Shown one piece after another: positions 1-1,109 of a stretch of 2,876 nt of DNA (positions within the stretch are counted from its first letter, which is position 1; every line of letters starts with the position of its first letter). This stretch comes from Escherichia coli (lineage in GTDB: Bacteria; Pseudomonadota; Gammaproteobacteria; Enterobacterales; Enterobacteriaceae). The notes under the pieces are model-generated. The model saw nothing but the letters and a program-made list of their open reading frames with translations, had not been told where the DNA came from and searched no databases. Position numbers and translations under genes: made by a program. The DNA lies in NCBI RefSeq assembly GCF_003334315.1, contig NZ_QOWR01000107.1; one strand, 5' to 3'.

Positions 1-848
1 ATTATATCGAATGTGATTACAATCGGTGGCGGCGGCACAGTTGGTGTGGCGGCCTCAGTCCGGAACAATTTGAAAACAAGAACCTCGCTTAGGCCTGTGT
101 CCATATTACGTGGGTAGGATCAACGTTCCGTAAAAAGTTGTATGGAGTTCTCGATGCAGTCGGCGCGACTATCAGTACCCCCGCTGAACCCTGGACTATC
201 GGGCCGCCGTACTGGGGCATGTCACCCTGGCGTGCCGCTGGTTTTCCGCTAATGGTTTATTTCCTCTTTCTTTCCCGGCAAGAATTTATTTTAATCCGGA
301 AGGATTATTTATTTTCAGATAGGGACTCACATTAAACACGTAACATTTTAATTAATGCATGGCTGAATATGTATTACACAATGTCAGATATCGTAAAAGA
401 CCAGTGCAATTCTATGTAAACTCTCTGACTGTTCATTTTATTTGTTGTTTCAGGGTCGGAACTCACCCTCAATAAACAACTGAATACGAGTAGATATTCA
501 TCGTCTGAGCTATATGGCTTTACACAATAGCCGACATGTCTTTTCTCAGTCAGGAATTTTACTTTTCCTCACTACGAAGTTGACGACTTCGATATGGGAT
601 AGACTCTTAATTCAAGCAATTACTCTGCACAAGCATCAGGCAATCCAGCTCCAATATTTGTTATAAAATAATGCGTAACATTAATTTCACCAACAAAAAA
701 AAGGTTTACACCATCCCCTTGCCCTGGTATCTTACCATATTTACACCACACTTTTTTGTATCTGGATCATTCTTTGATACGATTTTCGCCACTTGTTCCC
801 TGGCCCTCACTGTCAATGTTTTCTTAAACCTACCCCCATCATCATTTG

Positions 849-1109
849 TTAGGGAAAAATAAGAAAAAAATAATCATCTTCTACATTTGTGTATATTGAT
901 ATATCCACCGCTACGTGCGGAAAAAAATCTGGGAGCCATGTAAAAACTCCATCATTTTCTGGTATTGCCATATAGTTTATGTAATGTTTACTTACAAGAG
1001 ATTCATCTTTGTATAAATAAAGATAAGTAATTACGCATAAAACAACAATGATTATAATAGCAAAAATAAATATTATCATCTTTGATAGATTACTTGAGAT
1101 AGCCAGCAT
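849..1109 (-). CDS. Hypothetical small membrane protein (86 aa, one predicted TM helix); candidate immunity protein for the orphan toxin
   Basis: Seen in sequence: ATG at 1107..1109 overlaps the last 20 nt of the orphan toxin ORF, with an AAGG 9 nt upstream (plus 1119..1122). An alternative in-frame ATG at 1077..1079 lies just past the toxin stop but has no SD. Residues ~11-33 ([23 protein letters not shown]) form a strongly hydrophobic stretch. Position and strand fit the toxin-then-immunity rule of Rhs and CDI loci. The ORF is AT-rich and short, so it could be fortuitous. Confidence 0.45.

Follow-up and report, generated by a model that had tools for sequence, protein, structure and literature searches.

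A short open frame on the minus strand of an Escherichia coli rhs locus raises the question of whether it is a gene, a remnant of a gene, or chance. The frame lies in a stretch of 2,876 nucleotides (hereafter the window), which is 99.9% identical to the E. coli rhsD locus. A preliminary description placed a 57-aa ORF at 703-876, overlapping the 3' end of an 86-aa ORF, and offered three readings: a frameshifted remnant of a once-longer immunity gene, a further degenerate orphan remnant, or chance. From our analyses we conclude with high confidence that the frame is the central fragment of ybbD, a gene for a membrane-anchored protein of 163 residues which is most likely the immunity protein of an orphan Rhs tip, and that the gene has been broken by two homopolymer deletions.

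Results

The flagged frame and its homology

Direct translation confirmed that the region is open, but the ORF itself had been misdescribed. The in-frame triplet at 874..876, taken previously for an ATG, is TGA, a stop, and the frame closes with TAA at 706..708 instead of at 703..705. The ATG at 875..877 belongs to another frame, which runs for only 11 codons before its stop (842..877). The first residues of the proposed 57-aa peptide, MIIFSYSFS, were wrong owing to a one-base slip in the T7 run, whereas the peptide is correct from LTNDDGG on. The frame does overlap the 849..1109 ORF at the 3' end of the latter, as described. Direct translation revealed no in-frame ATG within the stop-to-stop stretch of 55 codons; among ORFs in this frame that have a start codon, the longest has 36 aa and begins with TTG at 816 (706..816).

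Of mononucleotide shuffles of 600..1110 (33% G+C), 59% contained 55 or more codons between two stops, so that length alone is not significant and was dropped as evidence. The frame is judged to be more than chance because of its homology: its translation aligns to positions 81-132 of NF011298, an NCBIfam model of 163 positions (E=2.9e-23), on which ground the chance reading was rejected. Only the codons of 751..864 are homologous, corresponding to YbbD residues 83-120, and the codons of 709..750 (CGVNMVRYQGKGMV, 14 residues) are out-of-frame read-through beyond a second deletion.

One gene in three frames

JNEC-KY175 contains ybbD as a single CDS of 492 nt (L004, 1021-1512), encoding a 'YbbD family protein' of 163 aa (WP_062872368.1) that joins the 86-aa ORF and the flagged peptide in one frame. 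Compared with this allele in a DNA alignment, the window has, within ybbD, one T fewer, one A fewer and one SNP, and restoring both bases in silico yields a 163-aa ORF with N52S as the sole substitution. The translations of the three window segments (Table 1) tile NF011298 at positions 1-85, 81-132 and 121-163, with E=2.9e-52, 2.9e-23 and 1.1e-26, respectively. As separate fragments they score 177, 83 and 94 bits; the intact allele is a full-length family match, scoring 378.9 bits over 1-163 at a curated cutoff of 326. A functional gene of this family would have one uninterrupted frame of approximately 160-180 codons, which the window copy lacks owing to its two 1-nt deletions. The window copy of ybbD is thus a pseudogene.

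Segment 1 covers the transmembrane helix together with the domain's first strands. It is annotated in RefSeq as WP_001320180.1, 'YbbD family protein', and scores 193.9 bits against NF011297 (cutoff 173), a model dedicated to the 86-aa truncation, the existence of which implies that the truncated form is common. Segment 3 holds the conserved WCK motif and the C-terminal Cys. It is split off by the second frameshift (A7 to A6, 752..757), which had been overlooked.

The fused intact homologue supports the first of the three original readings, as does the homopolymer-length polymorphism that had been suspected near 849..880 and was found at 864..870 (T7, T8 or T9). The word "immunity" in that reading derives from gene context only. 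The reading as a further degenerate orphan remnant was rejected, since in the intact alleles the part with homology continues the 86-aa ORF without a break.

Replication slippage has most probably taken one base from each run, changing T8 to T7 (864-870) and A7 to A6 (752-757). Translation from the ybbD start therefore stops after 86 residues. The middle and last frames are most likely untranslated remnants, since neither has a proper start, and from the structure model, in which the first frameshift interrupts a single domain, we infer that the function of ybbD has probably been lost. No decay of ybbD beyond the indels was observed in the window, which implies that the inactivation is recent or that some constraint persists.

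Table 1. Features of the window discussed in the text, with positions counted from its first nucleotide.
Feature	Position	Strand	Description
rhsD	2208..2876	minus	3' end and C-terminal tip
ybbC	1800..2168	minus	
Orphan Rhs fragment	1090..1800	minus	K-12 ylbH type; end of Rhs core with DPxGL motif, then C-terminal toxin tip of ~140 aa, unlike that of rhsD
ybbD pseudogene	620..1109	minus	Former 163-codon gene; 490 nt here, 492 nt intact; three frames
Segment 1	849..1109	minus	86-aa ORF: YbbD residues 1-82, 4 out-of-frame residues (LIFP), stop
Segment 2 (flagged frame)	706..876	minus	Stop TGA 874..876, 55 sense codons, stop TAA 706..708
Segment 3	620..751	minus	43 codons VWCKYGK…PDACAE and stop: YbbD residues 121-163; ORF from GTG
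Run 0, length-variable	921..927	minus	T7 here and in intact allele; T8 in cS108a and RM7190
Run 1, frameshift site 1	864..870	minus	Coding-strand T7; T8 in intact allele, T9 in RM7190
Run 2, frameshift site 2	752..757	minus	Coding-strand A6; A7 in intact allele and K-12
Run 3, length-variable	695..702	minus	T8 in most alleles, also here and in intact allele; T7 in O157:H7 RM8376

Locus layout

Read along the minus strand, the locus consists of the rhsD tip, ybbC, the orphan Rhs tip and ybbD in turn. Of 5426 complete E. coli genomes, 2770 contain a single copy of the segment 600..1110, with match lengths of 511-515 nt. Annotation of this region is inconsistent: RefSeq labels for the equivalents of 620..1109 (L001-L007) include 'YbbD family protein' of 86 or 111 aa, 'hypothetical protein', a 76-aa 'YbbD-related protein' and a 57-aa hypothetical protein, and the equivalents are flagged as frameshifted only sometimes.

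The left end of the window (approximately 1..122) is the terminus of an IS3 element, with tgggtaggatca at 111-122. The IS3 transposase CDS reaches approximately window position 92 in near-identical genomes. The insertion is missing in K-12, in the strain 167 assembly CM132936 and in others, where ylbG lies directly to the left. Next to the element, the minus-strand translation of 158..253 (ISGKPAARQGDMPQYGGPIVQGSAGVLIVAPT) resembles the N-terminal start of an Rhs protein and may be PAAR-like. In RefSeq it is an incomplete hypothetical protein missing its C-terminus, and it is probably the remnant of K-12 ylbI. On the plus strand, a 63-aa ORF with an ATG start (671..862) runs antisense to ybbD segments 2 and 3 and is unannotated in the RefSeq genomes inspected.

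Allele frequencies and the reality of the deletions

Alleles were counted as exact matches to queries of 71-98 nt, for which any single difference drops a match below the 99% identity band. At run 1, the T7 of the window and K-12 is the majority allele, with its 71-mer present in 1714 out of the 2326 genomes matched. The intact-type T8 (72-mer) was found in 530 of 2326. The A6 of the window at run 2 is a minority allele (71-mer in 193 of 2321 genomes); A7, as in K-12 and the intact type, was found with a 72-mer in 2010 of 2319. A 98-mer covering runs 0 and 1 in their intact-type state had exact matches in 379 of 2571 genomes, and the corresponding 97-mer for runs 2 and 3 in 1616 of 2281, two counts that give only bounds for the frequency of a fully intact ybbD.

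Single-base miscalls in homopolymers are a typical error of long reads, and the real gene might be intact or K-12-like, the frameshifts being errors of sequencing or assembly. Closely related IS3-bearing genomes indeed differ only by A6 versus A7, other genomes of the window's lineage carry A7, and O157:H7 assemblies disagree at run 3, where RM8376 (L009) has T7 and another O157:H7 genome matches the intact-type 97-mer. We nevertheless regard this explanation as highly improbable. T7 is found in several K-12 assemblies besides its 1714 complete genomes, and the 193 complete genomes in which A6 recurs come from differing laboratories, hosts and years. A6 is also present in the independent IS3-bearing assemblies PEC408 and NT1F31, which are 2-3 SNPs from the window. 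Even if A6 were erroneous, the T7 frameshift would stand, and the flagged frame would still be a pseudogene segment.

Possible recoding at the homopolymer runs

A second explanation holds that ybbD is a leaky or switchable immunity gene, in which low levels of full-length YbbD would arise through transcriptional slippage or -1 frameshifting of the ribosome at both runs, and run length would toggle the gene between lineages. The heptamers T_TTT_TTT (864-870) and A_AAA_AAG (751-757, with G751) conform to X_XXY_YYZ and are correctly phased, so that the intact YbbD sequence would be recreated exactly by shifting -1 at both. When stimulators are present, A_AA.A_AA.G ranks with the most efficient -1 motifs of E. 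coli, and transcriptional slippage and high indel rates have been tied to runs of A7 and U7 (PMC4066793). Furthermore, the four runs differ in length among strains, the downstream frames of ybbD are undamaged, and O157:H7 retains a full-length toxin gene beside a broken ybbD.

However, any 1-nt deletion from a homopolymer leaves such a heptamer, so that the motifs are no evidence of design. Downstream folding is unremarkable at both sites (z = -1.75 and +0.51), and no element resembling a Shine-Dalgarno sequence was seen upstream of either heptamer on reading the sequence. Motif-only -1 frameshifting in E. coli, without stimulators, exceeds a background of approximately 0.05% by only 2-10 fold (PMC4066793), and two consecutive frameshift events would be required here. 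The diverged and full-length relatives are encoded in one frame, hence the two-frame arrangement is not conserved. A programmed frameshift was rejected, given the lack of downstream structure and the absence of the two-frame arrangement from relatives.

The number of runs is not above that predicted from the protein and its codon usage. Although the intact gene has four runs of at least 7 bases compared with 0.29 expected from base composition (P=0.0004), 2.9 are expected when the protein and its own codon usage are fixed (synonymous-codon permutation, P=0.20). Conserved Phe-Phe and Lys-Lys dipeptides in AT-rich codons thus account for the runs as by-products. Similar runs occur in YbbD homologues, and the codon-permutation test of intact ybbD gave no sign of selection for slippery tracts. 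The homopolymer enrichment that would have pointed to a phase-variable contingency locus vanishes once protein sequence and codon usage are fixed; the tract lengths vary among strains.

Taken together, a leaky or switchable ybbD seems very unlikely, and we would give equally little credence to the proposition that the multiply frameshifted alleles, which predominate in E. coli, could go on supplying sufficient full-length immunity protein through low-level slippage or -1 shifting at the shortened runs. If this were true, homopolymer length would be a heritable dial on immunity expression.

The YbbD protein family

An exhaustive, profile-free search for the YbbD family returned only 47 cluster representatives at E<=0.001, including full-length relatives of 157-183 aa with 27-51% identity and many fragments. 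Diverged relatives with 70%, 51% and 39% identity (163-176 aa), as well as about 20 remoter ones, extend in a single frame across all three segments. The alignment features an N-terminal hydrophobic helix (with a lipobox-like signal in some members), an IPxxxGVxTWLPxFFP block, the WCK motif and a near-invariant C-terminal Cys. These features suggest that YbbD is a membrane-anchored protein, and the conserved Cys pair and the lipobox-like N-termini of relatives that it is probably periplasmic.

In the AlphaFold2 model of YbbD (pLDDT 92), a transmembrane helix (6-32) is followed by one alpha/beta domain (38-163). The first frameshift falls within the strand 80-86, which leaves the 86-aa product without most of the domain. 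Precomputed annotation assigns PF26610 (YbbD_head) to YbbD relatives; a Pfam-A scan of intact YbbD gave nothing significant, and a PDB sequence search gave no match. The literature search for ybbD found the gene in gene lists only, and no functional study.

Between the intact genes of KY175 and L012, dN/dS is 0.43 overall, based on small counts. For residues 83-120 (window 751..864) it is approximately 0.95, compared with 0.29-0.34 in the flanks, also from small counts. These residues, which are those of the flagged frame, could form a specificity-determining surface.

The weakest of the alternatives is that the 55-codon frame, or the 36-aa TTG ORF within it, is a gene for a small protein in its own right, or else the decayed remnant of another orphan immunity gene, unrelated to the 86-aa ORF. 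In its favour, 55 codons are open, and in K-12 (A7) the 57-aa GTG-start CDS WP_001297301.1 in RefSeq covers part of it together with segment 3. Yet it is almost certainly neither: there is no in-frame ATG, open stretches of this length are common by chance, the part with homology continues directly from the 86-aa ORF in intact alleles and all relatives, the last 14 residues are out of frame relative to the YbbD family, RefSeq has no CDS over the frame in genomes with the window's allele, and in the structure model its residues are interior elements of a single domain.

The orphan Rhs tip and the putative immunity role of YbbD

Residues 2-94 of the 1090..1800 ORF match TIGR03696 and NF041261, and RefSeq flags this ORF as 'missing N-terminus'. 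A Pfam-A scan of the toxin fragment found only the RHS repeat and no family matching the tip, and a PDB sequence search with the tip had no match. Relatives of the tip (residues ~95-236) keep the motifs FFHCMAFC and CPSTxDCSxRC down to 58% identity. By its sequence, the tip represents an uncharacterised putative toxin family with several Cys residues, and it is presumed to be the cognate toxin of YbbD.

Several lines of genomic evidence point to YbbD as the immunity partner. The start of ybbD overlaps the end of the toxin ORF by 20 nt on the same strand (1090..1109), an adjacency like that of RhsI proteins. A YbbD relative directly follows a homologous toxin tip in all three further loci examined, with the 20-nt overlap kept in L012 and L014 and a 10-nt gap in L015. 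In this small sample of three loci the pair diverges together, toxin identities of 86, 79 and 58% corresponding to YbbD identities of 70, 51 and 39%. The faster divergence of YbbD fits an immunity partner. From gene context and co-divergence, YbbD is most likely the immunity protein of the toxin tip. No paper on the toxin activity or immunity function of this pair was found in the literature.

In O157:H7 RM8376 (L009, 2750..5511), the same toxin tip is carried by a full-length Rhs core gene that is unflagged in RefSeq, and ybbD is broken at two runs, with T7 at run 1 and T7 at run 3. A full-length toxin Rhs beside a broken ybbD is awkward for an essential immunity factor, unless the toxin is undelivered, the 86-aa piece is enough, or the cell makes some frameshifted product. 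O157:H7 PV15-279, unlike RM8376, matches the intact-type 97-mer of runs 2 and 3, and the O157:H7 case is thus either an immunity-less toxin or a disagreement between assemblies.

The surroundings of the intact allele in JNEC-KY175 differ from those in the window. In L004 1493..2513, the Rhs core gene upstream carries a frameshift annotation, the toxin tip is a separate 151-aa hypothetical protein, and no ybbC or rhsD-type tip lies between the Rhs core gene and the toxin tip.

Discussion

The gene ybbD is already known and catalogued, with curated models for its intact and truncated forms, and the window copy is an unexceptional pseudogene belonging to an orphan Rhs module in decay. The significance of our analysis is mostly one of annotation: the three short frames in 620..1109 should be merged into one ybbD pseudogene and not annotated as independent hypothetical proteins. 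Beyond annotation, the steady pairing of YbbD with one uncharacterised Rhs toxin tip provides a testable toxin/immunity pair. Also of interest is that ybbD is broken at different homopolymers in different lineages, one of which has a full-length toxin gene.

The closest comparison is K-12, in which ybbD is the same gene in the same locus (rhsD–ybbC–ylbH–ybbD–ylbI), with DNA approximately 99.8% identical to the window. It is presumably listed as a pseudogene in K-12 databases. K-12 ybbD shares the T7 frameshift giving the 86-aa product; compared with K-12, the window has an extra 1-nt deletion (A6). Because only the first frameshift is present in K-12, its RefSeq annotation consists of an 86-aa CDS and a 57-aa CDS starting with GTG, whereas in the window A6 splits this second ORF (WP_001297301.1) into the flagged frame and the 43-codon piece. 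The gene order in the window agrees with the order listed in PMC3946193.

At 751-757, the window contains the heptamer A_AAA_AAG in the correct register, identical to that used in programmed -1 frameshifting of the dnaX/IS type. Unlike those sites, the heptamer in the window has no evident stimulators, is not conserved in homologues and was born by deletion in a minority allele.

The layout of the window fits the orphan Rhs-CT/immunity modules that arise by C-terminal displacement (Jackson et al. 2009, PMC2935791; Poole et al. 2011, PMC3150448). Like them, it has an Rhs core fragment without N-terminus, followed by a tip that is variable and AT-rich and then by a small gene, and the unit lies 3' of a complete rhs gene and that gene's partner, here the rhsD tip and ybbC. 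Frameshift decay of displaced fragments has been described for rhs fragments of Serratia (PMC2935791). In the window, by contrast, the decay affects the presumed immunity gene and not the toxin fragment.
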